Origin: an uncultured Proteiniphilum sp.
GTDB taxonomy: Bacteria > Bacteroidota > Bacteroidia > Bacteroidales > Dysgonomonadaceae
Length of the DNA stretch: 64,000 nt
Assembly: GCA_927407015.1 (NCBI GenBank)
Contig: CAKMJT010000006.1
Coordinates: 2,153-66,152, forward strand
Direction of reading: 5' to 3'
The notes beneath the pieces were generated by a model that was given only the letters and a program-made list of their open reading frames with translations, searched no databases and was not told where the DNA came from. Below, piece after piece: positions 10,495-56,041 of this stretch. Position 1 is the first letter of the stretch, and the number at the start of each line of letters is the position of its first letter. Both the position numbers and the translations under genes were made by a program.

Positions 10495-10516
10495 TTCCCT
10501 GATCATTGTCTGAAAG

Positions 10517-31872: not shown

Positions 31873-31889
31873 TTTTTTTGTGGATTAAG

Positions 31890-31902
31890 TTAAACGATTA
31901 AT
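31890..31902. promoter_or_regulatory. candidate LacI-family operator core TTAAACGATTAAT (site 2)
   Basis: 13/13 identical to sites 1 and 3. Lies 68 nt upstream of the fucI ATG. Confidence 0.65.
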
Positions 31903-31924
31903 ATTATTTATTTGTCCTTTTTAG

Positions 31925-31937
31925 TTAAACGATTAAT
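31925..31937. promoter_or_regulatory. candidate LacI-family operator core TTAAACGATTAAT (site 3)
   Basis: 13/13 identical. Lies 33 nt upstream of the fucI ATG and 35 bp (start to start) from site 2. Confidence 0.65.
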
Positions 31938-31969
31938 TTAATAATGGACGAAACAATTAAACAGAAAGT

Positions 31970-33745: not shown

Positions 33746-33798
33746 CGTGTAGATTGTGAGAAATAATCTGAATCTTATAAACCAAATATATTGATAGA

Positions 33799-38174: not shown

Positions 38175-38187
38175 TGATACCCATGTT

Positions 38188-39996: not shown

Positions 39997-40020
39997 TTTT
40001 TATTCTTAAAATATTTGATT

Positions 40021-40579: not shown

Positions 40580-41986
40580 ATGAAACATATCTTACTGATT
40601 ATTCTTGCTTCTGTGTTTATGCTCTTCTCTTGCAGTAAAGAAGAGGGTGACACCCCGTATGTACCTGTGGAGGAAATTTCGTCAGTGCAAACCGATCTTT
40701 TTCCGGACAAAGAAACCAAAAAGGTTTCAACATTACTGAATTTTAAAAATCTGGAAAAAATTGATTACTTGCTTGTTTCAATGAGTGGGGGACCAAGCTA
40801 TTCGGAAAAGATTGATCAAAGCAAATTGTCAAACCCCTATTTATATAGCTATACCATCCGGCAATCGGATCCGGAATTCTTCAGACTCATCTTAAAGGCA
40901 GTTTACAAGGACGGCAACGTATCCAGGGATTTTTCTCTGAATATCGACAACAGGTGGGGGTTCTTTGTCAGAAAAGTAGAGCGGATAGCACGTGTAACCG
41001 GAGCACCTATGGCTGGAGAACAATTTCCCAGTCCGAACAATACACCACTGAATTGGAACGTAGGTGGCACAGATCTGGGTATCATTTGGGAGATGCAACC
41101 CGGAAAATATGGTATCTTTTTTGGGGATACTTTCGGGCGCGATTTTAAACCCGATCCTTCCAATCCGGGACCGAACGGAAGTAACTGGAGGAGCAATGTA
41201 CTGGCATTCTCGAGTGATCAGATCCTGGAGGACGGGTTGTCCTTCAGCAGCATGGCGACGGATGAAGGGGGGGATGCCCGTGAAATCATTTACGGAGGGA
41301 AAGACACTTCGGGTAACGGCGACTGGACCTCCATTCCAACGGCAGCTGTCAGAGCCAATGGTTTCGACTACGTACACTATTTCAACATCAGAAACTGGAC
41401 TGGTTGGGTCACCAATTATTCAGGATTCTACAAGTCGGCTGACAACGGCCAAAGCTGGACTCCTTGTGAAAATATCTCCTTCTCATCTACAAGTCACTTT
41501 GGTCAGGCCGGATTTTTCAAAAAGGACTCGTTTGTATACATGATAGGCACAGAGACTGGTAGAGACAGTAAAGCTTATCTGGCACGGTTTAAAGAAATGG
41601 ATATCGAAAAGAGGGAAAATTATGAATACTGGAATAGTCATGCCGGTGAATGGATGCGAGGTAATGAGCAGCTGGCAACAGTGCTGATTGATGACAAGGT
41701 AGGAGAGTTATCCTTTCTCTACAATGAAACGCTGCAAAAGTGGATTGTGGCTTATTTCAACGGTGACCGGTATAACATCACCATGCGCACAGCCGAACAG
41801 GTCACTGGTCCCTGGAGTGAACCATATGAACTGGCTTCCGGTAAAGATTATCCCCAGCTTTATGGTTCCTATTTTCATCCTTTGTCAGTCAAGGGTGAGA
41901 CACTTTATTTCACGATGTCGATGTGGATGCCCTACAACGTTTTCCTGATGAAAGTTCAAATGGCCGATATGGGTACATTTGAATAA
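40580..41986 (+). CDS. DUF4185 / glycoside hydrolase family 183-like lipoprotein (candidate endo-D-arabinofuranase) with N-terminal ~120-aa extra domain
   Basis: Lipobox 'FMLFSC' followed by SKEEG. The body has 'NWNVGGTDLGIIWEM..GKYGIFFGDTFG', 'NWRSNVLAFS', 'WTSIPTAAV', 'YKSADNGQSWT', 'YEYWN', 'GELSFLYNETLQKWIVAYF', 'TGPWSEPYEL' and 'YPQLYGSYFHP'. This is the DUF4185 pattern as I remember it. Confidence 0.75.
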   Translation: MKHILLIILASVFMLFSCSKEEGDTPYVPVEEISSVQTDLFPDKETKKVSTLLNFKNLEKIDYLLVSMSGGPSYSEKIDQSKLSNPYLYSYTIRQSDPEFFRLILKAVYKDGNVSRDFSLNIDNRWGFFVRKVERIARVTGAPMAGEQFPSPNNTPLNWNVGGTDLGIIWEMQPGKYGIFFGDTFGRDFKPDPSNPGPNGSNWRSNVLAFSSDQILEDGLSFSSMATDEGGDAREIIYGGKDTSGNGDWTSIPTAAVRANGFDYVHYFNIRNWTGWVTNYSGFYKSADNGQSWTPCENISFSSTSHFGQAGFFKKDSFVYMIGTETGRDSKAYLARFKEMDIEKRENYEYWNSHAGEWMRGNEQLATVLIDDKVGELSFLYNETLQKWIVAYFNGDRYNITMRTAEQVTGPWSEPYELASGKDYPQLYGSYFHPLSVKGETLYFTMSMWMPYNVFLMKVQMADMGTFE

Positions 41987-42065: not shown

Positions 42066-43133
42066 ATGATGACAAAAATGAATTGCATACTAATCATTTC
42101 CCTGTTAATTGTGCTGTTTCCTGGTGGCAACAGTCTCTCCGCGCAGAATGATGTGCGGTTGACGCACTTCACGGAGCATGGGAAATGGATCCTGCCCTCC
42201 GACAGTTTCCCGGCACTGCCTGTCTGGGGACACAAGAATGGAATCAGGATAGGCATTGCTCCTACTCCCGGGCCCAGGGGACTGATCAGGATTTATACTC
42301 CTTATCTGGGTCACCGTGAGGATAAGATGATCAATTTCATCGCCATGGAACCGATTGCACGGGGTGAGGATCAACGGGGCTTTTCCGAGCTGGAGATGAG
42401 CGAGTTGGATGGCGTCAGGGGTAAACGGTTTTGGAGTGGCAACACGCCTGACTGCGATGCTCCCTACTCCTCCACCTCACCGTCAAGAGGCCGCATTGAA
42501 GTGATTGATGGTGTAGAGACGCTAACCCTTTATATTTTTTCAGAAACCTTCCTGAATGGTGCCAGACCCTATGTGAGGATCAGGTTCTATGAAGACCGGC
42601 CTTATGAACTGGAACTGACAACCTATGTCTGCCCAGAATCCAAAGAGCTGGAGTATCTGATCCTAACTGCCACGATGGGGAATTTTGCAAGATTGCGCAC
42701 ACTCTACCTCTCTGACGGCGTGAAACGATCAATCGAACTGTGGCCGTCTTACAATGGTATTCATTTTACAGAGCATGATCTAACACCAGTGGATGCCATG
42801 ATCAAAGACGGCAAGGGAGGTGTCTATTTTATTGCGGAACCGGATGAATCCGATCCGGTGAATGTGATCTATGCTCCCGGCACCGGAAATAACTGGATAT
42901 ACTACGGGAAGAAAGCCACACAATACTGGTATGTCCCTGAACCAGATCCCAAAATGGTGGGGCTGGCAAACGGCAGATATACTTACTGGGCAAGCAACTC
43001 TCCCATTCCGGGGGGTGTTTCGTTTGAGAATTTCGAACTGAAGTCTCCCTTCAAGCAGGGAGAGAAATTTGTATTTGGTGTGGTGCCTCTCACTGCCAAA
43101 GAATTAATCAAACAGATTGAGAAATATGAGTAA
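42066..43133 (+). CDS. hypothetical secreted protein, 355 aa (no family recognised)
   Basis: Signal peptide MMTKMNCILIISLLIVLFPGGNSLSAQ. The last 8 nt overlap the GH116 ATG (ATGAGTAA). Confidence 0.7.
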   Translation: MMTKMNCILIISLLIVLFPGGNSLSAQNDVRLTHFTEHGKWILPSDSFPALPVWGHKNGIRIGIAPTPGPRGLIRIYTPYLGHREDKMINFIAMEPIARGEDQRGFSELEMSELDGVRGKRFWSGNTPDCDAPYSSTSPSRGRIEVIDGVETLTLYIFSETFLNGARPYVRIRFYEDRPYELELTTYVCPESKELEYLILTATMGNFARLRTLYLSDGVKRSIELWPSYNGIHFTEHDLTPVDAMIKDGKGGVYFIAEPDESDPVNVIYAPGTGNNWIYYGKKATQYWYVPEPDPKMVGLANGRYTYWASNSPIPGGVSFENFELKSPFKQGEKFVFGVVPLTAKELIKQIEKYE

Positions 43134-46100
43134 CAGAAGAACCTTCCTGAAAAAAATGGGACTGGGTACCTTGGCAGCAGCAGGTTACCCGGCGGTCACC
43201 CCGGCAGAAAGCTTGCTGGGTAGAAGAGCAACGATTGATAAATTGTCTCTGCAGCTTGACAGAACTGTAAGGAACTTCAACGAGGTATATGAAAATGAAT
43301 ACCTGAGCAGGGTGGCATTCCCGATCGGTGGAATTGGCGCCGGCATGTTTTGCCTCGAAGGGAGCGGTGCGATCTCCCATCTCTCGGTAAACAACCGGCC
43401 GGAGATCTACAATGCTCCCTATGCCTTTGCAGGCATCAGCGTGAAAGGGCTGAAAAAGGGTGCCAAGGTACTGGAATCGACGGTCCCCACCTGGAAACTG
43501 TTCGGTCCCCGCGGAAGCGGGAACGGGCTGGGTAACCGCAATTACGGTCTACCCAGGTTTTCCAAAGGCTCCTTTCTGGCACGTTTCCCGTTCGGGATCA
43601 TCAAGCTGCAGGACAGCGATATTCCATTCGATGTGCAAATTGTAGGCTGGAGCCCCTTTGTTCCCATCGATGAGGATAACTCCAGCCTGCCGGTAGGCGT
43701 ACTGGAATATTCATTCAAAAACAACAGCGGAGAGAGGGTAGAAGCAGTATTCTCCTACAACGCGCGCAATTTCATCGATGAGAAGGGTGTGATCACTCCA
43801 CAGAAGAACGGGTTCCGACTGACCAAAGCAGTTGCCAACGGAGGAACTCATCCTGGTGGTTTTGCTATCTACCTCGACGACGACAACGCTGTTGCTGACC
43901 ATTGCTGGTTCAGGGGCGGCTGGTTCGATGCCCAGACTATCTTGTGGGACAATATAAGAAATGGAAAGGTGGTAAACCATCCTCCCATTGATGGGATTGC
44001 ACCCGGCGCCTCTCTCTATTTACCGTTTCAACTGCTGCCGGGTGAACAGAAAACCATACGCGTCAATTTCTGCTGGTACCTCCCGAAATCGGATCTCTCC
44101 ATCGGGCATCCCATCGTGACGGGTGAGGCGTTTAGGGGTAAAACGACCCGCGATGCAGTCAAAAATCAGCAAACGGTTACCGGTTATCAGGGAGCGGGTT
44201 TGCTAAACTCCTTTGACCCTGCCGGTGATGGCCAGGTGGGCATCCTGATCTCACCCCCGTTCCAGATCAGCAGACGCTACCTGAAGTTCCTGATCGGAGG
44301 TGGAAACAAGAATGAACTCACCTCTGTCAACCTGGTGATCGGTGACAAAATAGTGGAAACAGCCACCGGGCAGAACAGCGAATTGCTGACCGAGCGGATA
44401 TGGGATTTGAAAAATTATCAGGGAAAAGAAGCCAGGCTGAAGTTCGTGGATCTCGACACTTACGGATGGGGGCATATCCTGGCGGATCAATTTATCCTGA
44501 CCGATAATAGTCAGGAATCGATGAGAAATCCTTCCAACAATGCAATCGTGATCGCTGACTTTGAAAAGGAGAACCTTGAAGGGTGGGAAAGAATCACTCC
44601 GGAACAGCTCAATATACCGGATGCGAAGAACCCCTACTACAGGCCTTGGTATGCAGAGCGGTTCAGTAATCTTGATGAGTTGGTAGGCTACTGGAACGAC
44701 CATAAAGAAAAACTGAAAACCCATTCTGAACTCTTCCGGGATGCCTTTTATCGCTCTACCCTACCGGCAGAGGTGCTGGAGGCAGTAGCGGCCAACCTGA
44801 CCATCCTGAAGTCTCCCACCATTCTGCGTGTTGCCGACGGCAGACTTTGGGCCTGGGAAGGTTGCAGCGATGACTCCGGTTGCTGTCATGGCAGTTGTAC
44901 GCACGTGTGGAACTACGCTCAGGCGATCCCCCATCTCTTCCCAGCATTGGAGAGAACACTCCGGGAGACCGAGTTCCTGGTCAGCCAGGATGAGCAGGGT
45001 CATCAGAACTTCCGTTCCAATATCCCCATCTCACCTACCTCCCACGACTTCCATGCAGCTGCCGACGGACAACTGGGGGGCATCATGAAGGTCTACAGAG
45101 ACTGGCGGATTAGCGGTAACACGCAATGGTTGAAACGCCTTTTTCCTTATGTGCAGAAAAGCATGGAGTATTGTATCTGCACTTGGGATCCGAAAAGGAA
45201 GGGTTATCTTGAAGAGCCGCATCACAACACCTATGACATTGAGTTCTGGGGACCCGACGGAATGTGTACCAGCTTCTATCTCGGTGCGCTGACCGCGATG
45301 ATTGCCATGTGCAAAGAGGTGATTCAACCGTTCGATCAGTATGAAAATTTGCTCCGTAAAGGGAAGAATTATATGGAAAATGACCTGTTTGATGGGGAAT
45401 ATTTCATCCAGAAAATTATTTGGGAAGGATTGAATGCTCCTAATCCGGTTGAAGTGCAGTCGTTCGGCGGAAACTATTCGGAAGAGGCCCTGGCACTGCT
45501 GAAGAAAGAAGGACCCAAGTATCAGTACGGCTCCGGATGCCTTTCTGACGGGGTCCTGGGCATGTGGATGGCATCGGTCTGCGGACTGCCGGAGGTGATC
45601 GGGGATGAGAAGGTGAAAAGTCATCTAATGGCAGTGCACAAATACAATCTGAAGAGTACCCTGGAAGATCATTACAATCCGCAGCGGCCCACCTATGCCT
45701 GTGGTGAGGATGGGGGGCTCCTTCTCTGTACCTGGCCGAAAGGAGGCGCCTTGTCGCTTCCCTTTGTTTACAGCAACGAGGTATGGACCGGCATTGAATA
45801 CCAGGTAGCCAGCCACCTGATGCTGAAAGGTGAGGTGGAGAAGGGGCTGGAGATTGTCTGCACCTGCAGGAAGCGGTACGACGGGTCGGTACGCAATCCC
45901 TTCGATGAATATGAATGCGGACACTGGTATGCCCGTGCAATGGCAAGCTACGGCATGTTGCAGGGCTTGACAGGTGTGAGATATGATGCCGTTGACAAGA
46001 CACTTTATATCGATTCAAAGATCGGTGATTTCACCACTTTCCTATCTGCGGAGAAAGGGTTTGGTACGGTATCTTTGATGAATGGAAAAGTGTCTGTCGA

Positions 46101-46161
46101 CGTCGTATATGGTGAAATAGAAGTGAGTAGGATTCATGTTGGAGCAACAAAAGATGATTGA
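43126..46161 (+). CDS. glycoside hydrolase family 116 (GBA2-type) enzyme with Tat signal and an inserted ~160-aa module
   Basis: The track start at 43117 is TTG; the ATG at 43126 gives MSNRRTFLKKMGLGTLAAAG (twin-arginine). GH116-N: 'AFPIGGIGAGMFCLEGSGAISHLSV'. Catalytic region: 'WAWEGCSDDSGCCHGSCTHVWNYAQA', 'NTYDIEFWGPDGMCTSFY' and 'NEVWTGIEYQVASHL'. Confidence 0.85.
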   Translation: MSNRRTFLKKMGLGTLAAAGYPAVTPAESLLGRRATIDKLSLQLDRTVRNFNEVYENEYLSRVAFPIGGIGAGMFCLEGSGAISHLSVNNRPEIYNAPYAFAGISVKGLKKGAKVLESTVPTWKLFGPRGSGNGLGNRNYGLPRFSKGSFLARFPFGIIKLQDSDIPFDVQIVGWSPFVPIDEDNSSLPVGVLEYSFKNNSGERVEAVFSYNARNFIDEKGVITPQKNGFRLTKAVANGGTHPGGFAIYLDDDNAVADHCWFRGGWFDAQTILWDNIRNGKVVNHPPIDGIAPGASLYLPFQLLPGEQKTIRVNFCWYLPKSDLSIGHPIVTGEAFRGKTTRDAVKNQQTVTGYQGAGLLNSFDPAGDGQVGILISPPFQISRRYLKFLIGGGNKNELTSVNLVIGDKIVETATGQNSELLTERIWDLKNYQGKEARLKFVDLDTYGWGHILADQFILTDNSQESMRNPSNNAIVIADFEKENLEGWERITPEQLNIPDAKNPYYRPWYAERFSNLDELVGYWNDHKEKLKTHSELFRDAFYRSTLPAEVLEAVAANLTILKSPTILRVADGRLWAWEGCSDDSGCCHGSCTHVWNYAQAIPHLFPALERTLRETEFLVSQDEQGHQNFRSNIPISPTSHDFHAAADGQLGGIMKVYRDWRISGNTQWLKRLFPYVQKSMEYCICTWDPKRKGYLEEPHHNTYDIEFWGPDGMCTSFYLGALTAMIAMCKEVIQPFDQYENLLRKGKNYMENDLFDGEYFIQKIIWEGLNAPNPVEVQSFGGNYSEEALALLKKEGPKYQYGSGCLSDGVLGMWMASVCGLPEVIGDEKVKSHLMAVHKYNLKSTLEDHYNPQRPTYACGEDGGLLLCTWPKGGALSLPFVYSNEVWTGIEYQVASHLMLKGEVEKGLEIVCTCRKRYDGSVRNPFDEYECGHWYARAMASYGMLQGLTGVRYDAVDKTLYIDSKIGDFTTFLSAEKGFGTVSLMNGKVSVDVVYGEIEVSRIHVGATKDD

Positions 46162-46273
46162 TCCAACTGTTTCCCTGATCAAACAGATAATTTCAACAAG
46201 ATATAATGGAGTAATCCAATAATTGTATAAATTTGTTCAAATTTAACTTAACGCACTAACTGAATTATTGATT

Positions 46274-47446
46274 ATGAATCTAAAAACATTTAATCTGACT
46301 CTCGTCGCATTTGCAGTGATTTCCTCTTCACTGATAAATGCCCAGAATCGTAATTTCAACGGTCTGGATATGAACATGGGTAATCTCTACCGCTTGTCCA
46401 ATGCAGAGACACGTTCAATCAGCCCGGAGAACTTTACCGGGGAAAAAGGAAAGGGAGGGATGGCTACACCCAATCCCAATGCACCCCGAAATGCCGCCAA
46501 TGCAACCCATGCTGCCCGTGACCTCGGACAGGGGTGGAAGGTGAACCCTTTTGTCACCATACAGCCGGGAGAGACCTTCACCATGGCTGAAATTGAGGGA
46601 CCCGGTGCCATTCAGCATATCTGGATGACACCTACCGGCAACTGGCGCTTCTCTATTATCCGCATCTACTGGGATGATGAGACCGAACCCTCCGTGGAGG
46701 TGCCGGTAGGACACTTTTTCGGGATGGGATGGAACGAATATGCCCATCTCAACTCACTGCCGGTAACGGTTAATCCCGGCAGCGCCTTTAACTGTTACTG
46801 GACCATGCCGTTCCGCAAGAAGGCACGCATCACAATGACCAACGTCAACGATGAACAGCCGATGAACCTCTATTATCAGATCGACTACACGCTGACCGAT
46901 GTACCCGATGACGCCGCCTACTTCCATACACAGTTCCGCAGGACAAAGGTGAATGCCACATCCAATTACACCATCGTGGATGGCATTAAGGGTGAAGGGC
47001 AATACGTAGGGGTATATATGGCCTGGCAGGTGAACAACAACGGCTGGTGGGGAGAAGGAGAAATCAAGTTCTTCATGGACGGGGATAAACAATTCCCAAC
47101 CATCATTGGCACCGGAACAGAGGATTACTTCTGTGGCTCGTATAACTTTGACCGTAACGGGAAATACGTTACTTTTACCACTCCTTATGCGGGACTGGTG
47201 CAAGTGCTGCCTCCCGATCTGACCTACAAGGCAGGACAACGTTTCGGATTGTACAGGTGGCACATAATGGATCCCATCCGTTTCAAAAAAGATTTGCGCA
47301 TAACCATACAGGATTTGGGCTGGCGTCATGGCGGCCGTTACCTGCCCCAACAGTCGGATATCTCTTCCGCCGTATTCTGGTACCAGACCGAGCCTCATGC
47401 TGCCTTCCCCAACCTTCCCACCTGGCAGGAACTCGAAGTCAACTAA
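46274..47446 (+). CDS. DUF2961 / GH172 protein (paralog b), secreted
   Basis: The track start at 46268 is TTG; the ATG at 46274 gives MNLKTFNLTLVAFAVISSSLINAQ. Contains 'GPGAIQHIWMTP', 'IIRIYWDDETEPSVEVPVGHFFGMGW', 'YWTMPFRKKARITMTN' and 'GTGTEDYFCGSYNF'. Confidence 0.85.
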   Translation: MNLKTFNLTLVAFAVISSSLINAQNRNFNGLDMNMGNLYRLSNAETRSISPENFTGEKGKGGMATPNPNAPRNAANATHAARDLGQGWKVNPFVTIQPGETFTMAEIEGPGAIQHIWMTPTGNWRFSIIRIYWDDETEPSVEVPVGHFFGMGWNEYAHLNSLPVTVNPGSAFNCYWTMPFRKKARITMTNVNDEQPMNLYYQIDYTLTDVPDDAAYFHTQFRRTKVNATSNYTIVDGIKGEGQYVGVYMAWQVNNNGWWGEGEIKFFMDGDKQFPTIIGTGTEDYFCGSYNFDRNGKYVTFTTPYAGLVQVLPPDLTYKAGQRFGLYRWHIMDPIRFKKDLRITIQDLGWRHGGRYLPQQSDISSAVFWYQTEPHAAFPNLPTWQELEVN

Positions 47447-47468
47447 TCAAAAAAACAATTTTTTTATA

Positions 47469-49409
47469 ATGCGTACGATCAAAACAACATTGCTTTTCTC
47501 AATCCTGCTGCTGCCAGGCATCACCTCCCTGCAGGGACAAAACAATCGCTTCCGCTGGAGCAGCGAACTGGAACAGCTGAAAAGAGTGGATCAGCTTCCT
47601 CTCTACAGAGAACGGCAGCTCATTGACCAGGAATCGAGTTACGACCGTACAGGCGGCAACAACGACGGCTTCTCGGGACATTACTCCTATATCCGCAAAG
47701 AGGGGGATAACCTCGTACTGGCCGACTTCAGGGGACCGGGCGTGGTGAACAGGATCTGGACCCCTACCCCAACCAGCGACACGCTCCTCTTCTTTTTTGA
47801 CGGCGAGAATCAGCCGCGGCTGAAGATCTGCTTTATGGATCTCTTTAGCGGCAAGGTATATCCCTTCGTGAAACCGGTGGTAGGCAATGAGATCGGCGGA
47901 TACTACAGCTATATCCCCATCCCGTTCCAAAAATCACTCAAAATCGTCTTCCAGGGTAATCATCTCATGTTCCTTCAGATACAGTACCGCAAGCTACCAG
48001 GCATGAAGGTGGAGAGCTGGACGGGCGAATTCTCCCACTCCGACAGGAAGCTGTTGTCGGAGGTGGCAGAACTCTGGGCCGACATCACCCCCTCCGTGGA
48101 GAACTACACTGCAGGTCTTTCTGAAGGTGCCGTAATGGAGGAGAAAACCTTCACCCTGCTGCCCGGAGAGGAGGTTTCCTTCTTTGAAAAGGATGGTGCT
48201 GGTCGAATCGTCGGGCTTGAAGTCGATGGAGGAACCGCATTCGAGGGTATATACAAGGACGTGTTACTGGTTTCGTCGTGGGACAATGAGGCGGTAGAAG
48301 CGATCTATGCCCCCGTGGCCGATTTCTTCGGATATGCCTACGGCAAGCCGGCCATGCGCAGTATCCTGATGGGACGGCAGGCTACCACCAACTACTGCTA
48401 CCTGCCGATGCCCTTCGATCGCTCGGCATCCATGAAGCTGATTTATAAAAAGAGGAAGGGAGTGAAACAGAACCCCCTGTCGGTCACCACGAAGGTCTAC
48501 TACAACGACAACGGACGCAACCAGAAGAGCGAAGGAAAGCTTTACACCCTATGGAGACGCGAGAAGCCGGAGCTGGGTGAGTTTTTCACTTTCCTCGATA
48601 CCAAAGGCAAAGGGCACTATGTGGGCACCATCCACCAGGCACAAGGTTTGCGACCTGGCATGACCCTCTTCTTCGAAGGGGATGACACCACTTACGTGGA
48701 TGGTGGCATGCGCCTGCACGGTACCGGTTCGGAAGATTACTACAACGGCGGATGGTATGCCTTGCTCGATCGATGGGATCGTGGTATCAGCATGCCCCTG
48801 CACGGGTCGCTCGACTATTCCCTGCCGATGAACCGCACGGGAGGCTACCGCTTCTTCCTATCCGACAAAATGTCCTTTGAAAAGGAAATCTATCATGGCA
48901 TAGAGCATGGGGAGGTAAACAACAACTTCCCGGTGGATTATACCTCGGTGGCCTTCTACTACGCCAACAGGTCAATGAGCAGCAGAATGGAACCAACAGA
49001 AGCATTACGCAAGGTCTATCTGCCCGACACCCATGTCTTTTTCCCCCAGCTGATGGAGATCACTCTTGAAAAAGGAATACAGGTGATCTTTGATAGAGGA
49101 CTGGCCCTCTCTTCTTTTGGAAAAGGAGCTGTCAGGGTGATGCTGAATGACGTGCCGGAAGGAAAATACCGCGTACTACTCAATTATCACGAGGGACCCA
49201 GGGGTGCCGACTTCCAGATATGGCAGCGCCAGAACCAACTCTCAGAATGGATCTCAACATGGAAAGAGAAGGAAGGATACCGCGAACGAGTGCATGTAGG
49301 CGATATTCAGCTCACCCCTCAGACCAATTCGATAACGTTACATGTGAGAGACAACGGGAAGTCGAATTTGTTTGAACTGACCCTGATCACACTGGAACGT
49401 ATCGATTAA
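47469..49409 (+). CDS. DUF2961 / GH172 protein (paralog c) with ~150-200-aa C-terminal extension
   Basis: Start taken at the ATG at 47469 (MRTIKTTLLFSILLLPGITSLQGQ). The track ORF's upstream 47 codons overlap the previous gene. Contains 'GPGVVNRIWTPTP', 'LLFFFDGENQPRLKICFMDLF', 'YSYIPIPFQKSLKIVFQ' and 'GTGSEDYYNGGWY', then an extra C-terminal domain. Confidence 0.8.
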   Translation: MRTIKTTLLFSILLLPGITSLQGQNNRFRWSSELEQLKRVDQLPLYRERQLIDQESSYDRTGGNNDGFSGHYSYIRKEGDNLVLADFRGPGVVNRIWTPTPTSDTLLFFFDGENQPRLKICFMDLFSGKVYPFVKPVVGNEIGGYYSYIPIPFQKSLKIVFQGNHLMFLQIQYRKLPGMKVESWTGEFSHSDRKLLSEVAELWADITPSVENYTAGLSEGAVMEEKTFTLLPGEEVSFFEKDGAGRIVGLEVDGGTAFEGIYKDVLLVSSWDNEAVEAIYAPVADFFGYAYGKPAMRSILMGRQATTNYCYLPMPFDRSASMKLIYKKRKGVKQNPLSVTTKVYYNDNGRNQKSEGKLYTLWRREKPELGEFFTFLDTKGKGHYVGTIHQAQGLRPGMTLFFEGDDTTYVDGGMRLHGTGSEDYYNGGWYALLDRWDRGISMPLHGSLDYSLPMNRTGGYRFFLSDKMSFEKEIYHGIEHGEVNNNFPVDYTSVAFYYANRSMSSRMEPTEALRKVYLPDTHVFFPQLMEITLEKGIQVIFDRGLALSSFGKGAVRVMLNDVPEGKYRVLLNYHEGPRGADFQIWQRQNQLSEWISTWKEKEGYRERVHVGDIQLTPQTNSITLHVRDNGKSNLFELTLITLERID

Positions 49410-49421
49410 ACAGCAGGATCA

Positions 49422-51521
49422 ATGGAACAACTTTTTTTGATCATTTCAGCATCCCTGCTTTTGCTGCTGCCCCCTTTTAAGGGGGCGGCGGCAGGCGGGA
49501 AGGCCATGGTGGAACCTGTTGGTGCCTCATCCCTTCCTTTTGACGGTGCTGTCAGCGAAATGATATACGACGAGCTGGGCAATGAGGCTGGGGTACAGAC
49601 TGTAACGGTTATCAGCCCGGAGCTGGTGCATCTGAAACTCGCTTTCAAGCTGGATCGGCCACTTCGGCAGGACGACTGGCGAATGACGCTGATGCCCGGC
49701 TTTACGCCCTCCTTTCACTGGGCGCCGCACCTCACCCCCACCCCGCACCATATCATCGATCAACATGTCTTTCGCTCTCCTGCACTTATCGTGGCGGATG
49801 AGAGGCAGGTGCTGGCATTAATACCGGATCTCGACATCATGCGGGTGGGGACACCGGTGAGATGGTATCTTGATATGGATGCGGAGCAGAACCAATTGAT
49901 CCTGGGGATGTGCAACAGCAGCGTGGATGACCATGTGCTGTTTCGGCGTGCACCGGGCGCCTCCTATCCGGAGGGTGTGGTGGAGGTGGGTTTTTACCTG
50001 CTCTGCACTACTGCGGAGGAGGCAATTGAGAACCCGTTCCGTAAACCGCTGGAGTTTATGTGGAGCCGCTGGGGAAACCCGCTCTACAGAAACGGTAATC
50101 CGCTGGAAGGATCACTGGAACCCTATGTGAAGCATACTTATAACTGGGCGTTCAACGGTTGGTACAATGCCGTATGGCAGGAGTTCACGCTCAATGGAAG
50201 AAGGGTGGGTGCCCCAGTATTCATCGTCAACGTGACACAGAGCCCCAACTACCCCGGCAGGGTGAATGAGCGCGAATTTCGCTCCATTTGGAACCAGGCA
50301 TGGTTCAGCTCCCTGCGCTCCGCGAGTGGTCTCTACCGCTATGCCAGGCGTACCGGTAACGACCGGTTGATGGAAAAAGCCCGGATGACCAAGGATTTGG
50401 CACTCTCCTTTCCGCAGCCGGATGGCTTTTTTTACGGCCTTATCGCCACCGAGATGGAAGAGGTGGAGGAAGAGGGAAAAAAATACAACCGCAGCAAGGG
50501 GTGGGACACCTACTACTGGGGTAATTCCAACCGGAACCCCTATAGTTGGAATCCCCGGGAAGCTCCTTTCCATATTCTCGACATGAGCTGGACCGCCCTG
50601 CTGATGCTTCGCTGGTACGATGAGCTGGAACAGGATCAACGCTTGTTCCGCTATGCGGAGACTTATGCCGCAGCATTAATGAAAAAACAGCTGCCGAATG
50701 GCTTCTTCCCCGGCTGGCTGGATCTGAACACACTCCAACCGATTCACCACCTGAATGACTCTCCCGAGACATCTTTGTCAGTCACCTTCCTGCTGAAGCT
50801 GTATGAACTGACAGGGAAGCAAGACTACCGCACTGCATCACTGAAAGCACTGGATGCCGTGATCCGTGAAGTGATTCCTGCCGGCAGGTGGGAGGATTTC
50901 GAAACCTATTGGTCCTGCTCTCGCTACGGAGCAGATCATCTGGTGGGAAAGAAGGTTATCCGAAACAACATGCATAAACAAAACAACTTCTCCATTTTCT
51001 GGACAGCAGAAGCACTGCTTGAAGCCTACCGGATTACTGGCGTCAAATATTACCTTTCACTGGGAGAGCGCACGCTCGATGAGTTACTGATGACCCAGGC
51101 ATCCTGGCAGCCCCCATATATGTATGTGAATGTACTGGGTGGCTTCGGGGTGATGAACGGCGATGGTGAGTGGAACGACTCGCGGCAGAGCCTTTTTGCC
51201 GAACTGATCCTGCGCTACGGCGCTCTACTTGAGAGAGAGGAGTACCGGGAGCGGGGTATTGCAGCTCTGAAAGCCTCCTTCGTGATGATGTACGCTCCCG
51301 AGAACCCGGTAACGAGCCGTCAGTGGGAGAAGGTTTATCCCTTCTTTGGAGAAGCAGATTACGGCTTTACGATGGAGAACTACGGTCACGGGGGACGAAC
51401 CAGTCCCGAAGGGGAAGGAATGGGTGAATTTACCATCTACGACTGGGGGAACGGTGCTGCTGCGGAGGCATATAACCGCATCCTAGATCATTTTCCAGAG
51501 ATTGGGAAAATAATAAGATAA
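49422..51521 (+). CDS. hypothetical secreted protein, 699 aa, C-terminal half looks like an (alpha/alpha)6-barrel
   Basis: Hydrophobic N-terminus MEQLFLIISASLLLLLPPF. Repeated helix-pair blocks: 'TALLMLRWYDELEQDQRLFRYAETYAAAL', 'SVTFLLKLYELTGKQDYRTASLKALDAV', 'FWTAEALLEAYRITGVKYYLSLGERTLDEL' and 'LFAELILRYGALLEREEYRERGIAALKA'. No family recognised. Confidence 0.7.
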   Translation: MEQLFLIISASLLLLLPPFKGAAAGGKAMVEPVGASSLPFDGAVSEMIYDELGNEAGVQTVTVISPELVHLKLAFKLDRPLRQDDWRMTLMPGFTPSFHWAPHLTPTPHHIIDQHVFRSPALIVADERQVLALIPDLDIMRVGTPVRWYLDMDAEQNQLILGMCNSSVDDHVLFRRAPGASYPEGVVEVGFYLLCTTAEEAIENPFRKPLEFMWSRWGNPLYRNGNPLEGSLEPYVKHTYNWAFNGWYNAVWQEFTLNGRRVGAPVFIVNVTQSPNYPGRVNEREFRSIWNQAWFSSLRSASGLYRYARRTGNDRLMEKARMTKDLALSFPQPDGFFYGLIATEMEEVEEEGKKYNRSKGWDTYYWGNSNRNPYSWNPREAPFHILDMSWTALLMLRWYDELEQDQRLFRYAETYAAALMKKQLPNGFFPGWLDLNTLQPIHHLNDSPETSLSVTFLLKLYELTGKQDYRTASLKALDAVIREVIPAGRWEDFETYWSCSRYGADHLVGKKVIRNNMHKQNNFSIFWTAEALLEAYRITGVKYYLSLGERTLDELLMTQASWQPPYMYVNVLGGFGVMNGDGEWNDSRQSLFAELILRYGALLEREEYRERGIAALKASFVMMYAPENPVTSRQWEKVYPFFGEADYGFTMENYGHGGRTSPEGEGMGEFTIYDWGNGAAAEAYNRILDHFPEIGKIIR

Positions 51522-51608: not shown

Positions 51609-52874
51609 ATGAAGAAACGAAATCAATTGAGTGGAGTCGTTGCCGCAGTGCTGATCGGGGGGGTGTTTACCCTCTCCTGCACAGGTAACAGGAAAAAAAC
51701 GGAATCTATGGAAATGAACTATGAAAAAGGAACGTTTGGGTATGACCTGAACTACCTCTCGGAAAAAGACAGCCTGATCCTCCTGAAATCGGAAGATGAA
51801 AAGGCACAGGTGATTCTTTCTGCAAAGTACCAGGCAAAGGTTTTCACTTCTACGGCTAACGGCCTGGAGGGAAACAGCCACGGCTTTGTCAACTACAAAT
51901 TCTTCGATGCCGGTATCGTGGATGAGCACATGAACGGCTTTGGCGGTGAAAACCGCTTCTGGCTCGGCCCGGAGGGGGGACAATACTCGGTCTTCTTTGC
52001 ACCGGGAACGGAACAGGTGTATGACAACTGGCACACTCCCAAGCCGATCGATATCGAGGCATGGGAGCTGGACGCTGCTTCTGCCACGGAGGCTGCTTTC
52101 TCCAAAGAGATGGAGGTGAGAAACTATCGGGGTACAGAGCTGAAGATCGGAGCTGAACGGAAAGTCATGTTGCTCTCCAAGGAGGAGAGCAGCAGGGAGC
52201 TGGGATTAAATCTTCCCGGGGAGATGGAGATGGTGGCTTACAGTACCGAGAACAGGATCATCAATCGCAACGATTTTGCCTGGAACGAGGAGACCGGTAC
52301 CGTCTGTATCTGGATGCTCGATATGTTTATCCCGTCCGACTCTGCAGTGACGGTAATCCCCTATCAAACAGGGAGTGAAAAAGAGTTAGGCCGTGTTGTT
52401 ACATCAGATTATTTCGGAGAAATCCATCCCGATCGACTGATCGATGAAAATGGGGTTCTTTTTTTTAAAACGGATGGAAAATCGAGGGGAAAGCTGGGGA
52501 TGAACGCGCACAGGACCAAAGGGATCGCGGCCAACTACGACCCGATCGGGGGGCGGCTTACCGTGATGACCTTCACCACACAACCTGACGCCACCTACCT
52601 CAACCAGGAGTGGAACCCGGAGAAAGATCCCCTGAAAGGTGACGCTCTCAACGCCTACAACGACGGCCCGCTGGAAGATGGTAGCATCATGGGCCCCTTC
52701 CTGGAGCTTGAGAGCTGCTCACCGGCCGCTTTTTTAAAACCGGGCGAATCACGCTCTCACAAGCACAATGTGTACCATTTCGAGGGTAATGAGGTCTCCC
52801 TCTCCCCTATTTCAGAAAAATTACTGGGTGTGAGCCTGGAGAAAGTAAAGAATATTTTTAATAGCAATCGGTAA
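51609..52874 (+). CDS. hypothetical lipoprotein, 421 aa (possibly mutarotase-like beta-sandwich; family not recognised)
   Basis: Lipobox 'GGVFTLSC' followed by the basic TGNRKK, which suggests periplasm-facing. 'NGFGGENRFWLGPEGGQYSVFF' is reminiscent of aldose-epimerase-like folds, but only weakly. Confidence 0.65.
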   Translation: MKKRNQLSGVVAAVLIGGVFTLSCTGNRKKTESMEMNYEKGTFGYDLNYLSEKDSLILLKSEDEKAQVILSAKYQAKVFTSTANGLEGNSHGFVNYKFFDAGIVDEHMNGFGGENRFWLGPEGGQYSVFFAPGTEQVYDNWHTPKPIDIEAWELDAASATEAAFSKEMEVRNYRGTELKIGAERKVMLLSKEESSRELGLNLPGEMEMVAYSTENRIINRNDFAWNEETGTVCIWMLDMFIPSDSAVTVIPYQTGSEKELGRVVTSDYFGEIHPDRLIDENGVLFFKTDGKSRGKLGMNAHRTKGIAANYDPIGGRLTVMTFTTQPDATYLNQEWNPEKDPLKGDALNAYNDGPLEDGSIMGPFLELESCSPAAFLKPGESRSHKHNVYHFEGNEVSLSPISEKLLGVSLEKVKNIFNSNR

Positions 52875-52960: not shown

Positions 52961-54406
52961 ATGAATACAAATTCAGAAAAACACCGGCTGGTTCCGGCAG
53001 GGATCATTTTCCCCTTTATCCTTCTCACTTCTCTCTTTTTTATCTGGGCGGTTCCCAACAACATGACCGACACCATGCTGGCGGCATTCAAGCGCATCAT
53101 GAGCCTTTCCGATACGCAGACAGCCTGGATACAGGTTGTCTGCTACTTATTGGGTTATGGCTGTTTCGCATTGCCCGGTGCCATCTTCATCAAAAAGCAT
53201 ACCTATAAATCGGGTGTCCTGCTTGGTTTAGGGTTATGCATTACGGGTACCCTCCTGTTTTATCCGGCGATGCTGGCCAACAGCATCAGTTCACCACTGA
53301 GTTTTGCAACGTATCTGTTTGCAATCTTCGTTCTGTTTGCAGGTTTATCAGTTCTGGAGACTTCAACGAATGCCTATGTATACTCCCTGGGTGATCCGGT
53401 AACCGCTACACGGCGACTCAATTTCTCTCAGTCGTTTAACCCTTTTGGCGCACTCTCCGGTGTTTTGGCGAGCCAGATTTTCATACTGTCGCAGTTAAAT
53501 ACCATGACTGCTGCCAAAAGAGATGCCCTGAGCGGATCGGAACTGGTTGCCATACAGAATGGAGAGTTGAATGCCGTGACCACAGCTTATATGATCCTGG
53601 GCGTAGTGATGCTGGTGCTCTTTCTGTTGATCTACTTTACCCGGATGCCCAAAGCACAGGACGACGATAAAAGTCTGGATCTGAAAGCAACCTGGGGACG
53701 CTTGAAGCGGAACAAGAACTACGTGTGGGGTGTGATTGCACAGTTTTTCTACGTGGGTGCCCAGATTGCCGTCTGGTCGTTCATCATTCGTTACGCCATG
53801 CAGCAGCTTAATTTCGATGCCGTTATTGCAGGCCTGGGAGCTAACCCTTCACAGGATGCCATCATTGGGGCATTGCGTAGTGTAGAGCCTATTGCCGGGG
53901 GATTCTATGCATTTACCGAAGCCATTGGCCTTGACGTTCTGCTGCCCCGTACGGCTGAGCAGGCCGGTGCCACCTATTACATCATGTCGCTCATCCTTTT
54001 TGTGTTGGGACGGTTCATCTGCACGTGGCTGATGAAATATATCCGGCCGGTCAACCTCTTATCTGCACTGGCTATATTGGCTGTAATCCTTTCGCTGATT
54101 GCCATTTATGGACAAGGATTTGCGGGAGTCTATGCGCTGATGGGCATTTCCGGATGTATGTCGCTGATGTTTCCCACCATCTACGGATTGGGTATGAGGG
54201 GGCTGGGAGAAGATACCAAGATTGCCGGATCAGGGATGGTAATGGCGATTGCCGGTGCAGCACTGCTGACCCAGATACAGGGAATCCTCTCCGATCAGGC
54301 CGGAAGTATTAATTTTGCCTACTGGGTGCCGGCTATCGCGTTTTTAATAATCGCTTTTTATAGTTTGACGGTTGCCCGCAGCAAAAAGCTGGGCAATGGA
54401 AATTAA
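52961..54406 (+). CDS. fucP: MFS sugar:H+ symporter, L-fucose permease (FucP) family
   Basis: 481 aa, about 12 TM segments. 'FFIWAVPNNMTDTMLAAFKRIMSLS' resembles the FucP N-terminal block (FFLWGFANxLNDILIPxFK). Confidence 0.75.
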   Translation: MNTNSEKHRLVPAGIIFPFILLTSLFFIWAVPNNMTDTMLAAFKRIMSLSDTQTAWIQVVCYLLGYGCFALPGAIFIKKHTYKSGVLLGLGLCITGTLLFYPAMLANSISSPLSFATYLFAIFVLFAGLSVLETSTNAYVYSLGDPVTATRRLNFSQSFNPFGALSGVLASQIFILSQLNTMTAAKRDALSGSELVAIQNGELNAVTTAYMILGVVMLVLFLLIYFTRMPKAQDDDKSLDLKATWGRLKRNKNYVWGVIAQFFYVGAQIAVWSFIIRYAMQQLNFDAVIAGLGANPSQDAIIGALRSVEPIAGGFYAFTEAIGLDVLLPRTAEQAGATYYIMSLILFVLGRFICTWLMKYIRPVNLLSALAILAVILSLIAIYGQGFAGVYALMGISGCMSLMFPTIYGLGMRGLGEDTKIAGSGMVMAIAGAALLTQIQGILSDQAGSINFAYWVPAIAFLIIAFYSLTVARSKKLGNGN

Positions 54407-56041
54407 ATGATTATGAATCAATATATTGTAGGGATAGACTATGGCACGGATTCCTGCCGTGCAATCGTTGTGAATAGCACCACAGGAAAAGAAGAGGCAT
54501 CATATACTGCTTTTTATCCGTGCTGGAGAAAGGGTTTATATTGTGACCCTGCCCAAAACCGCTACCGCCAGCATCCACAGGATTATATCGATTCACTGGA
54601 AGAGGCAATTCGTGGTGTTTTGAGGCAGATGAAGCCCGCAGAGATTGACAACATCGTCGCACTGGGTATCGATACCACCGGGAGTACACCCTGTCTGACA
54701 GACCGGAATGGGATTCCCCTGGCGCTGTTGCCCGGGTACGAAGAGGATCCCGACGCCATGTTCGTGTTATGGAAAGACCATACCGCCGTCAACGAGGCGG
54801 ATGAGATCAACAGACTGGCCCATGGGTGGGAGACCGACTATACCGCACGCTCCGGAGGAATCTACTCCTCCGAATGGTTCTGGTCAAAGGCACTCCATAT
54901 CCTGCGGCAGAACGAACGCATCCGCCGCGATGCCCGGGGACTGATCGAACATTGCGACTGGATGCCGGCACTGCTGACCGGCAACCTCTTGCCTGAGAAG
55001 GTGAAGAGAAGCCGCTGCGCCGCCGGGCACAAAGGGATGTGGGCGGAGGAATGGGGCGGTTACCCTTCCGCGGCGTTCCTTTCCAGGCTCGATCCCCTGC
55101 TGGGCGAATTCAGGGCGCTTTTAAGCGACGAAACCCATACCGGCGATACTCCGGTCGGGATCCTCACCGAAGAGTGGTCTGAGCGGCTTGGATTGCCCCG
55201 CAGCGTGGTGGTCTCTGCCGGCATCCTCGATGCACATGCCGGGGCCATAGGTGCCGGCATCCGCCCGAACAGCATGGTAAAGATCATCGGCACTTCCACC
55301 TGCGACATCGTGGTCACCCCGAAACAGGATATCGGTGACAAGCTGATCCCGGGCATCAGTGGTCAGGTGGATGGCTCCGTGATCCCCGGGCTGATCGGAC
55401 TGGAAGCGGGACAATCGGCTTTCGGCGACATTTATGCCTGGTTCAGGGATCTACTTTCCTGGACTGCAAATACCCTTCCGGAGAAAGAGAGGGTCGCATT
55501 GGCCGGTAACCTTTTGCAGCAGCTTACTGTCGAGGCAGAAAAATTACCACTTACGGTGGCAGACCCGATTGCCAACGATTGGCTGAATGGTCGCCGCTCC
55601 CCTTTTGCCGATCAGACCCTGAAAGGAGGCATTATCGGGATCACCCTGGGAACTACACCGGCACAACTTTTCAAGAGCCTGGTGGAGGCTACCGCCTTCG
55701 GATCGCGAGCCATCCTGGAGCATCTCGGACAAGAGGGGGTACGGGTGGATGAGGTGATCGGCGTGGGGGGCATTTCTCTGAAGTCGCCTTACGTGATGCA
55801 GACCCTGGCCGATGTGATGGGAGTACCCATCAAAGTGGCTGCCGCACAACAGGCCGGCGCATTGGGTGCGGCCATGTGCGCGGCCGTTTCAGCAGAGGTT
55901 TTCCATACAATGGAGAATGCCCGGGAATCCTTGGGACAGGGCTATAAAACGGTGTACGTTCCGCGTGCGGAAAATCGGGAGACATACAACGCATTGTATG
56001 AAAAATATTGGCAACTAAACCGGTTTTTGGAAGCAAGATAA
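54407..56041 (+). CDS. FGGY-family ribulokinase (AraB-like)
   Basis: The ATG directly abuts the permease stop (TAAATG). Contains 'YIVGIDYGTDSCRAIVV', 'GIDTTGSTP', 'SSEWFWSKALHIL', 'IGTSTCD' and 'GGISLKSPYVMQTLADVMGVPIKV'. The 544-aa length is typical of AraB. Confidence 0.8.
   Translation: MIMNQYIVGIDYGTDSCRAIVVNSTTGKEEASYTAFYPCWRKGLYCDPAQNRYRQHPQDYIDSLEEAIRGVLRQMKPAEIDNIVALGIDTTGSTPCLTDRNGIPLALLPGYEEDPDAMFVLWKDHTAVNEADEINRLAHGWETDYTARSGGIYSSEWFWSKALHILRQNERIRRDARGLIEHCDWMPALLTGNLLPEKVKRSRCAAGHKGMWAEEWGGYPSAAFLSRLDPLLGEFRALLSDETHTGDTPVGILTEEWSERLGLPRSVVVSAGILDAHAGAIGAGIRPNSMVKIIGTSTCDIVVTPKQDIGDKLIPGISGQVDGSVIPGLIGLEAGQSAFGDIYAWFRDLLSWTANTLPEKERVALAGNLLQQLTVEAEKLPLTVADPIANDWLNGRRSPFADQTLKGGIIGITLGTTPAQLFKSLVEATAFGSRAILEHLGQEGVRVDEVIGVGGISLKSPYVMQTLADVMGVPIKVAAAQQAGALGAAMCAAVSAEVFHTMENARESLGQGYKTVYVPRAENRETYNALYEKYWQLNRFLEAR

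Follow-up and report, generated by a model that had tools for sequence, protein, structure and literature searches.

Arabinogalactan and lipoarabinomannan (LAM) of Mycobacterium tuberculosis and related species have a core of D-arabinan. The enzymes that cleave this polymer became known only in 2023, and already serve as tools for dissecting cell-wall structure and building probes. In the closest described systems, GH183, GH172 and GH116 enzymes alone are sufficient to degrade the D-arabinan core fully in vitro (PMC10509167). GH172 enzymes are exo-alpha-D-arabinofuranosidases whose activity requires oligomerisation, and GH116 subfamily 4 contains a characterised exo-beta-D-arabinofuranosidase, ExoMA2 from Microbacterium arabinogalactanolyticum (PMC10509167). 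For the Dg71 type of GH172, its authors propose a junction or a succinylated site as the substrate.

The window analysed here, a 64,000-nucleotide stretch of an uncultured Proteiniphilum sp. genome, contains a PUL with all three of these families, together with genes for D-arabinose uptake and catabolism (Table 1). Directly after a Dg71-like GH172 gene lies a 699-residue ORF with an ATG start, the target of this study; the target and its relatives are referred to below as family X. In Dysgonomonas spp. the order GH172-GH116-DUF6786-X-GH172-FucI-SusC-SusD matches the way the genes of D. gadei PUL42, a locus validated by experiment, are numbered from 02467 to 02475, and this synteny suggests that HMPREF9455_02470 (F5IZF3) is the D. 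gadei orthologue of the target. A 16-sequence family X alignment was used to retrieve related loci, 80 of which make up the context table. This context, gene adjacency, the Dysgonomonas synteny and genome co-occurrence place family X among the components of D-arabinan utilisation loci.

Table 1. Positions within the window of the PUL genes and of the domains and motifs of the target protein.
Feature	Position	Strand	Remarks
PUL start: LacI regulator, FucI-type isomerase, third GH172, SusC, SusD, small lipoprotein	30877..40431	+	
GH183 / DUF4185 endo-D-arabinanase	40580..41986	+	
GH116, probable exo-beta-D-arabinofuranosidase	43117..46161	+	Synteny indicates orthology with D. gadei HMPREF9455_02468
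GH172 (DUF2961), single-domain type	46268..47446	+	
GH172 (DUF2961), two matched stretches, Dg71-like 1.5-domain type	47328..49409	+	12 nt before target
Target gene (family X)	49422..51521	+	Signal peptide, beta-sandwich and (alpha/alpha)6 barrel
Signal-peptide-like hydrophobic segment, residues 1-28	49422..49505	+	Atypical n-region without a basic residue
N-terminal beta-sandwich, residues 44-196	49551..50009	+	HVFRSPALI / LIPDLD block conserved; D136 in at least 90% of sequences
(alpha/alpha)6 barrel, residues 297-690	50310..51491	+	Six helix hairpins, long loops on one face
Motif G-R-W-E-D-F-E-T-Y, residues 488-496	50883..50909	+	E494 invariant, D492 95%: candidate catalytic carboxylates
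Motif GGFGVMNGDGEWNDSRQS, residues 573-590	51138..51191	+	D586 invariant, N579 and R588 98%: candidate catalytic/substrate-binding loop before helix 9
Motif M-E-N-Y-G-H, residues 651-656	51372..51389	+	E652 and H656 in 95%
DUF6786 protein, conserved downstream neighbour	51609..52874	+	In 41/80 loci
FucP-type permease and ribulokinase, D-arabinose uptake/catabolism	52961..56041	+	

The original prediction, made from the DNA letters, placed the target 12 nt behind the GH172 gene and gave it a hydrophobic N-terminus, and both details hold. The GH172 stop codon, TAA at 49407-49409, is in frame with the target ORF, so that position 49422 is the earliest possible start of the target; the true start of the GH172 gene itself is probably 47469. 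A promoter and terminator scan of the interval between the two genes, run with a sigma-70 consensus that is unsuited to Bacteroidota, gave no meaningful signal. The N-terminal segment begins MEQLFLIISASLLLLLPPF..., and residues 14-29 have pLDDT values below 50 in the AlphaFold2 model. Homologues of the target carry canonical SPI or lipoprotein signals, with a lipobox in one of them. Across the family, signal peptides are present in Bacteroidota and Planctomycetota members, whereas Bacillota members have none and adjoin ABC sugar importers, which is the usual pattern of enzymes that process oligosaccharides after import. The target is probably a sugar-processing enzyme of the periplasm with a barrel shape, and its family is a strong candidate for a new glycoside hydrolase family.

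An AlphaFold2 model built on a 41-sequence alignment (mean pLDDT 93.4, pTM 0.92) contains a beta-sandwich joined by a linker to the C-terminal domain. The regularly spaced helix pairs proposed for this C-terminal half form a real (alpha/alpha)6 barrel in the model, with pairs at residues 297-311/314-328, 385-401/406-420, 450-464/467-483, 522-539/542-556, 588-603/606-618 and 629-638/677-690. AlphaFold2 models with pLDDT of 93.4 and 90.8 both show the six hairpins, placing family X in the six-hairpin (alpha/alpha)6 superfamily at the level of fold. Foldseek returned more than 100 matches at E<=1e-3, all to six-hairpin carbohydrate enzymes; the best are to PL27, GH52/116/63/94, AGE epimerases, GH76 and GH88, at no more than 14% identity.

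The target is not the orphan it was first taken to be. A homologue search identified 1625 relatives among the candidates it scored, and a separate, exhaustive HMMER search gave 705 clusters at 50% identity, from Bacteroidota, Bacillota, Planctomycetota and Acidobacteriota. The statement that signatures of known families are absent holds, as the target protein has no match in Pfam or NCBIfam at E<=10, and none among PDB sequences. No strong similarity to any family outside the CAZymes turned up, and related loci also contain the gene, so neither of the two outcomes named as refuting the original prediction was observed. A literature search found no characterisation of family X, DUF6786 or HMPREF9455_02470. 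"Candidate new glycoside hydrolase family" is thus a fair description of a secreted, two-domain (alpha/alpha)6-barrel protein that belongs to no family defined in Pfam or NCBIfam and is encoded in a D-arabinan locus. There is a low probability that family X already sits in a CAZy family that has neither a Pfam or NCBIfam model nor a structure, such as GH182 or a newer one, and would then not be new. GH182, an exo-beta-D-galactofuranosidase family with BACFIN_04787 as founder, was established in the same arabinogalactan-degradation study. However, its founders report several PUL42 proteins without annotation and name no GH182 member there, family X members are called "hypothetical protein" or bear spurious GH88, pectate lyase or prenyltransferase labels (NCBI, JGI, UniRef), and their neighbours are D-arabinan genes rather than galactan genes.

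Residue conservation was scored on 41 family X sequences that share 25-94% identity. Four residues are invariant (E494, D586, Q559 and R611), and six more, namely D492, E652, H656, N579, R588 and N628, are each found in at least 90% of the sequences. By topology, nearly all of the conserved residues fall in long loops ahead of the odd-numbered barrel helices, and thus on the side of the barrel where (alpha/alpha)6 glycosidases usually have their active site. The conserved acids probably cluster in three dimensions, as judged from topology alone, and the invariant E494 and D586 and the near-invariant D492 and E652 are the putative catalytic residues.

Family X was compared with individual six-hairpin families. 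GH127/GH146 beta-L-arabinofuranosidases remove beta-linked arabinofuranose caps, and would be the L-series analogue of the job proposed below for family X. In GH127 enzymes the nucleophile is a Cys, which works together with a Zn site. Seven of the 41 family X members have weak matches to PF07944 (GH127), the best of which (E 0.0022) is below the cut-off, and no Cys reaches 85% conservation in the alignment; membership was rejected. Partial matches to PF07470 (GH88) occur in 11/41 members at 16-30 bits, at least one of them just over the Pfam cut-off. The target has no such match, and those of its relatives span only HMM positions ~203-344 of 352, leaving out the region near the N-terminus with the catalytic Asp, so GH88/GH105 membership was also rejected. 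Weak Pfam matches to GH47 in further members do not support placement in that family. The AGE, GH76 and GH88 barrels superpose on the family X barrel at TMt 0.60-0.72 and 8-14% identity; only the barrel matches, and unlike family X these families have no N-terminal beta-sandwich. In the case of GH76, structural likeness (TMt 0.72, 11% identity) is not accompanied by a GH76 Pfam match in any of the 41 members, and membership was not supported. GH76 is recognised by an adjacent catalytic Asp-Asp pair, of which the E491-D492 pair of the target is only a possible counterpart.

Two alternative readings give family X a chemistry other than hydrolysis. First, it might be an AGE-superfamily-like epimerase or isomerase whose substrate is either a released sugar or the reducing end of a D-arabino-oligosaccharide. 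The best matches to the barrel alone are glucose 2-epimerase, the GlcNAc 2-epimerase family, cellobiose 2-epimerase and mannose isomerase (TMt 0.60-0.65), and a few members have weak matches to PF07221 (2/41) and to a C5-epimerase Pfam model. AGE enzymes depend on a conserved His pair, whereas H656 is the only highly conserved His in family X and its invariant residues include carboxylates. Identity to AGE enzymes is merely 8-14%, the beta-sandwich is absent from them, the periplasm is an unusual place for sugar isomerases, and FucI already provides isomerisation in the locus. These differences make an epimerase or isomerase improbable.

Second, PL27 includes an L-rhamnose-alpha-1,4-D-glucuronate lyase, BACCELL_00875 (5NO8), which like the target is a Bacteroidota PUL protein of ~670-700 residues with a six-hairpin barrel. 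It is the top match of family X both by sequence profile (E 1.4e-4) and by full-length Foldseek comparison (E 8e-10), and family X has the same two-domain architecture as GH94 cellobiose phosphorylase. Nevertheless, a PL27-like lyase or a GH65/GH94-like phosphorylase is the most improbable of the activities considered. The profile match extends over only ~100 residues of generic helix hairpins, and identity (10-13%) and TM-scores (0.29-0.33) are low. Moreover, D-arabinan contains no uronic acid, which a lyase needs for beta-elimination, and periplasmic export speaks against a phosphorylase. PL27 membership was rejected on these grounds.

The most consistent partner of family X is GH172. A GH172 gene lies within 400 bp of the family X gene in 52 of 88 loci, on the same strand in all but two of them (50/52), and the two genes overlap in Enterococcus and Paenibacillus. 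In one Planctomycete protein of 1097 residues, family X and a GH172 module are joined in a single chain. Proteins of 1174 residues that appear to join GH183 to family X (P0070 and others) probably arose from gene calls that read through a stop or from genes juxtaposed without one, since the family X part keeps its own signal peptide internally, and they were counted as evidence of adjacency only. GH172 is present in 3/3 family X genomes against a base rate of 9/251 for the class, and in 41 of the 42 Dysgonomonadaceae genomes with family X, although such co-occurrence counts ignore phylogeny and many of the sampled genomes are MAGs. Family X also occurs in other settings: in Mariniphaga it is found with sulfatases, GH2 and GH92, and some members have no CAZyme neighbours.

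Such tight pairing and fusion with an enzyme whose activity needs oligomerisation might also be expected of a non-catalytic glycan-binding or scaffold partner of GH172 oligomers. This is very improbable, given that the barrel loops hold invariant buried-type carboxylates, Arg and Trp typical of active sites, that the protein is large (700 aa) and that some members have no GH172 nearby. It is instead probable that family X is a new six-hairpin glycosidase family that acts with GH172 on D-arabinofuranosyl oligosaccharides, with hydrolytic chemistry, exo action and substrate all as predictions.

The identity of the missing step was first argued from the supposed lack of an enzyme for beta-1,2-linked D-Araf caps in this locus. 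That argument is wrong as stated, because this locus has a GH116 gene of its own, and exo-beta-D-arabinofuranosidase activity is known from GH116 subfamily 4. The GH116 enzymes and family X share a beta-sandwich plus (alpha/alpha)6-barrel layout and a locus type, and may well act at the same pathway step, the exo-trimming of imported D-arabino-oligosaccharides beside GH172. Yet they have no detectable sequence kinship (hhalign probability 0.2% against the GH116 of the locus) and a Foldseek TM of ~0.3; the target matches neither the catalytic (PF04685) nor the N-terminal (PF12215) model of GH116 at E<=10, and GH116 membership was rejected. Given the GH116 of this locus and the sufficiency of three enzymes in vitro, a beta-D-arabinofuranosidase role of family X would be at least partly redundant here. 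Among 151 sampled Dysgonomonadaceae genomes, family X and GH116 occur together in 17, which argues for distinct roles, and the two are probably not simple functional duplicates. Of the 25 genomes in this sample with GH183, 22 have family X and 14 have GH116. Nine of the 151 genomes combine GH183, GH172 and family X without a GH116 orthologue, and one has GH183 and GH116 without family X. Those nine genomes keep a beta-D-arabinofuranosidase-type role as the leading specific guess for family X, albeit a tentative one.

The reading favoured here, with somewhat better than even confidence, is that family X is a periplasmic, co-transcribed core enzyme of D-arabinan loci that works in tandem with GH172 on a GH172-resistant unit. 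Surface GH183 would cut D-arabinan, and SusC/D would bring the oligosaccharides in. Periplasmic family X would then remove a residue or break a linkage that resists GH172, likeliest a beta-linked D-arabinofuranosyl cap or a similarly resistant terminal unit, with catalysis by E494, D586, D492 and E652 on the long-loop face of the barrel. Subsequently, GH172 enzymes would trim the alpha-1,5/alpha-1,3 chain to D-arabinose, to be taken up and converted by FucP, FucI and ribulokinase. A bolder and distinctly less secure version is that family X is a second exo-beta-D-arabinofuranosidase, non-homologous to GH116, or acts on another GH172-resistant D-Araf linkage, and is a new GH family that serves as the principal partner of GH172. 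Family X is found in D-arabinan loci more consistently than GH116, and its members come from at least four phyla. On this bolder version, the published GH183/GH172/GH116 scheme for mycobacterial arabinan would be incomplete for most environmental degraders.

Alternatively, family X could be a glycosidase for a decoration or junction instead of the arabinan core. It might cleave the alpha-Manp-(1->5)-Araf cap linkage of ManLAM, the junction of arabinan with galactan or mannan, branch points that carry GalN or succinyl groups, or whatever the adjacent Dg71-type GH172 acts on. The sufficiency of GH183, GH172 and GH116 for core D-arabinan (PMC10509167) leaves room for such a role, and Dysgonomonadaceae family X genes usually adjoin a Dg71-like GH172. 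GH38 or GH92 alpha-mannosidases beside distant family X members and the similarity of the barrel to GH76 alpha-mannanases point in the same direction. Conversely, GalN and Man caps are limited to some mycobacteria, while the pairing of family X with GH172 extends across soil, marine and digester taxa; the target PUL encodes no mannosidase, and the family gives no Pfam GH76 match. A decoration or junction enzyme seems rather unlikely.

If action in tandem with GH172 is confirmed, family X would complete the D-arabinan degradation scheme as a further conserved family genetically locked to GH172. Family X might also explain the specificity of the neighbouring Dg71-type GH172, and the enzyme would be a new reagent for structural analysis of arabinogalactan and LAM and for LAM-based diagnostics. 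Because the ~700 clusters at 50% identity currently carry either no label or misleading ones ("GH88", "pectate lyase", "prenyltransferase"), establishing the activity of a single member would correct the annotation of thousands of genes.

The window holds a Bacteroidota polysaccharide utilisation locus (PUL) with housekeeping genes on its flanks. The same gene set makes up the Dysgonomonas gadei D-arabinan PUL (PMC10115798), and the same enzyme set occurs in Microbacterium arabinogalactanolyticum (PMC10509167). The twelfth PUL gene encodes a 699-residue protein, termed family X together with its relatives. The preceding GH172 (exo-alpha-D-arabinofuranosidase) ORF closes on a TAA stop whose last base is 49409 and which is in frame with the family X ORF, so ATG 49422 is the earliest start available, and the 12-nt gap reported in the original prediction is reproduced. 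Co-transcription of the two genes is predicted from this spacing and from conserved gene order; a promoter and terminator scan, whose sigma-70 consensus is ill suited to Bacteroidota, gave no meaningful signal between them. The N-terminus, MEQLFLIISASLLLLLPPF..., is hydrophobic, as had been noted, and close homologues carry canonical signal peptides, e.g. MKKQLFLFACMAFCALFPVHG, with a lipobox in one.

Features of the D-arabinan locus and of its 699-residue family X protein
Feature	Description	Position	Source
PUL gene 1	LacI regulator
PUL gene 2	L-fucose/D-arabinose-type isomerase
PUL gene 3	GH172
PUL genes 4-6	SusC, SusD, small lipoprotein
PUL gene 7	GH183 (DUF4185)
PUL gene 8	355-aa protein, no assigned family	42066-43133 (+)
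PUL gene 9	GH116
PUL genes 10-11	two further GH172	46268-47446 and 47328-49409
PUL gene 12	family X protein	49422-51521 (+)
PUL gene 13	DUF6786 protein, 421 aa	51609-52874 (+)
PUL genes 14-15	FucP-type permease, then ribulokinase
Model part	signal region, disordered		AlphaFold2
Model part	beta-sandwich	residues 44-196	AlphaFold2
Model part	helical/beta linker	between sandwich and barrel	AlphaFold2
Model part	six helix hairpins	between residues 297 and 690	AlphaFold2
Motif	GRWEDFETY	residues 488-496	41-sequence alignment
Motif	GGFGVxNxDxEWNDxRQS	residues 573-590	41-sequence alignment
Motif	MENYGH	residues 651-656	41-sequence alignment

The tandem GH172 ORFs, as mechanically called, share 119 nt; a later ATG is the probable start of the second gene, and the original prediction placed it at 47469. 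The 355-aa protein, a second uncharacterised PUL component, has no match in Pfam, NCBIfam or PDB; its 3' end overlaps the GH116 start, and it adjoins GH116 in 16/80 related loci. Outside the PUL, the source genome contains a second, weak DUF4185 (GH183-like) match (G000:C47:10394-11227, E 7e-14).

The 699-residue protein has no matches in Pfam-A and NCBIfam even at E<=10, in agreement with the earlier reading, in which no GH127, GH142 or GH88 signature motif was recognised, and none among all PDB sequences (phmmer). Its description as an orphan is contradicted. A word-indexed search yielded 1625 relatives among the candidates scored; the best 120 are 66–94% identical to it and, where named, belong mostly to Proteiniphilum, Petrimonas, Fermentimonas, Seramator and other Dysgonomonadaceae. 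Exhaustive HMMER searching of 1.84 billion cluster representatives returned 705 clusters with a cut-off of E<=1e-3, 259 of which also pass E<=1e-30, and matches typically cover residues ~95–690, so both protein halves are inherited together. At least 514 species-representative genomes contain a relative, including Bacteroides, Prevotella, Chitinophagaceae, Sphingobacterium, Flavobacteriia, Acidobacteriota, Paenibacillus and Neobacillus, and a profile of distant members extends the reach to Planctomycetota, Verrucomicrobia, Cohnella, Virgibacillus and Enterococcus. In their sources the members are labelled 'hypothetical protein' or bear conflicting names (GH88, YesR, pectate lyase, prenyltransferase), and no published characterisation of the family or of D. 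gadei HMPREF9455_02470 was found in the literature. Family X is undescribed in Pfam-A, NCBIfam, PDB sequences and structures, and 8.4 million papers; that it already equals a CAZy-only family such as GH182, founded in the same arabinogalactan study as the D. gadei PUL, is improbable.

An AlphaFold2 model built from a 41-sequence alignment (25–94% identity) has a mean pLDDT of 93.4 and a pTM of 0.92, and its six hairpins bear out the (alpha/alpha)6-barrel texture originally perceived. Every full-length Foldseek match in PDB is a two-domain six-hairpin carbohydrate enzyme (PL27 lyase 5NO8, GH52, GH116, GH63, GH94 and a GH15-like dextran dextrinase), with TM ~0.3 and ~10% identity throughout; a lyase or phosphorylase is one alternative reading of the family. 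Residues 200–699 modelled separately (pLDDT 90.8) match AGE-superfamily epimerases (TMt 0.60–0.65), GH76 (0.72), GH88 (~0.6) and GH9, at 8–14% identity and a best E of 3e-7, and an AGE-like epimerase is another alternative. With the family profile, the best PDB sequence match is again 5NO8, at no more than E 1.4e-4 over ~100 residues of hairpins. The 41 members give scattered partial six-hairpin-clan matches only in Pfam (GH88, n=11; C5-epimerase, n=7; GH127, n=7; GH47, n=4), and hhalign detects no similarity to the GH116 of the locus. The predicted structure thus places the protein in the six-hairpin superfamily, but in none of its defined families that were compared.

Among the 41 sequences, E494, D586, Q559 and R611 are invariant, and conservation reaches at least 90% for D136, D492, R588, E652, H656, N579, N628 and several Trp; together these residues make up the three motifs tabulated above. 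By predicted secondary structure, nearly all conserved residues lie in the long loops that run from an even-numbered helix to the next odd-numbered one; opposite-face loops are 2–4 residues long and show no conservation. In six-hairpin glycosidases the long-loop face builds the active-site funnel, so the natural reading of the predicted topology is one conserved pocket that holds two or more carboxylates.

Gene neighbourhoods tie family X to GH172. Scanning ±10 kb of 80 named loci by tblastn with the window's own proteins identified GH172 in 60, FucP in 42, DUF6786 in 41, ribulokinase in 37, GH183 in 21 and GH116 in 19. GH172 lies within 400 bp in 52/88 loci, on the same strand in 50 of the 52; 22 loci have no nearby GH172, several being contigs that end next to the family X gene. 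The pairing persists at 30–45% identity: the Enterococcus massiliensis homologue follows an ABC importer and overlaps a downstream GH172, that of Paenibacillus spongiae overlaps GH172 by 4 nt, and that of Virgibacillus oceani sits immediately after GH183 and downstream of two GH172 genes. A 1097-aa planctomycete protein, P0301, is a natural fusion of an N-terminal ~800-aa family X region with a C-terminal GH172 module (10001–13294 of its locus, MAG DHGK01000346.1; neighbours include GH127, GH43 and GH28, not GH183 or GH116). A non-catalytic partner is a further alternative. Signal peptides are present in Bacteroidota and Planctomycetota homologues but absent in those of Bacillota, as expected for an enzyme acting on oligosaccharides post-import. 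Separately, eight ORFs of 1121–1174 aa (P0070, P0073, P0075, P0076, P0081, P0082, P0085 and P0086) run from a GH183 (DUF4185) frame into family X without a stop, keeping its signal peptide internally; they reflect either gene-calling read-through or stop-less juxtaposition.

Genome content gives the same association. Of 251 genomes sampled evenly from the class, three have family X and nine have GH172, the three among them. Of 151 Dysgonomonadaceae genomes, 42 carry family X, 75 GH172, 23 a GH116 orthologue and 25 GH183; 41/42 family X genomes contain GH172 (Fisher p ~5e-15, indicative only, as shared ancestry is ignored and many genomes are draft MAGs).

Dysgonomonas sp. UBA7710 and D. termitidis share the order GH172–GH116–DUF6786–X–GH172 (Dg71-like)–FucI–SusC–SusD–small lipoprotein, which equals, gene for gene, that of D. 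gadei PUL42. The published D. gadei gene table (PMC10115798, PMC10509167) gives 02467 as GH172a (386 aa), 02468 as GH116, 02469 as uncharacterised (416 aa), 02471 as Dg71, 02472 as FucI, and 02473, 02474 and 02475 as 1044, 585 and 130 aa. From this match we infer that HMPREF9455_02470 is the family X orthologue; several D-arabinan-abundant PUL42 proteins 'lacked annotation' according to the authors (PMC10115798). The DUF6786 gene directly downstream of family X, kept in 41/80 loci, would by synteny be the counterpart of HMPREF9455_02469, a protein present in the D-arabinan proteome; the DUF6786 product has no PDB relative.

Fold, conserved carboxylates, the localisation pattern and the tight pairing with GH172, an exo-glycosidase, predict that the protein is most likely an exo-acting or small-oligosaccharide glycoside hydrolase. 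The D. gadei GH172 enzymes cleave alpha-1,5 and alpha-1,3 D-Araf linkages; for Dg71, the GH172 type adjoining family X, no preferred substrate was identified. The remaining core linkage, the beta-1,2 cap, is removed by GH116 subfamily 4 (PMC10509167), and the locus has a GH116 gene, so the original rationale that a beta-cap enzyme was missing is wrong. A beta-D-arabinofuranosidase-type role nevertheless stays the leading specific hypothesis, a tentative one, because D-arabinan loci contain family X more regularly than GH116 (22/25 versus 14/25 GH183 genomes) and because nine genomes have GH183, GH172 and family X without GH116; one has GH183 and GH116 without family X. Family X and GH116 occur together in 17/151 genomes, suggesting that the two are distinct at least by the substrate context in which they act.

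The alternative of a decoration or junction glycosidase draws on the GH38 or GH92 mannosidases that flank some distant members and hint at arabinomannan. In Enterococcus massiliensis and Paenibacillus spongiae an ABC importer and a GH38 alpha-mannosidase accompany the X–GH172 pair, joined in the former by a PfkB kinase, an SIS protein and a phosphoketolase and in the latter by two sulfatases; this suggests that Bacillota members act on arabinomannan-like or other substrates. Members ~65% identical to the 699-residue protein in Mariniphaga anaerophila and Draconibacterium sp. have sulfatases, an FAD oxidoreductase, GH2, a GH88-like protein and GH92 as neighbours and no GH172 within 10 kb, a different substrate context; others have no CAZyme neighbours at all. 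Family X is thus probably not mono-specific. As a glycoside hydrolase, a family X enzyme would clear something resistant to GH172.
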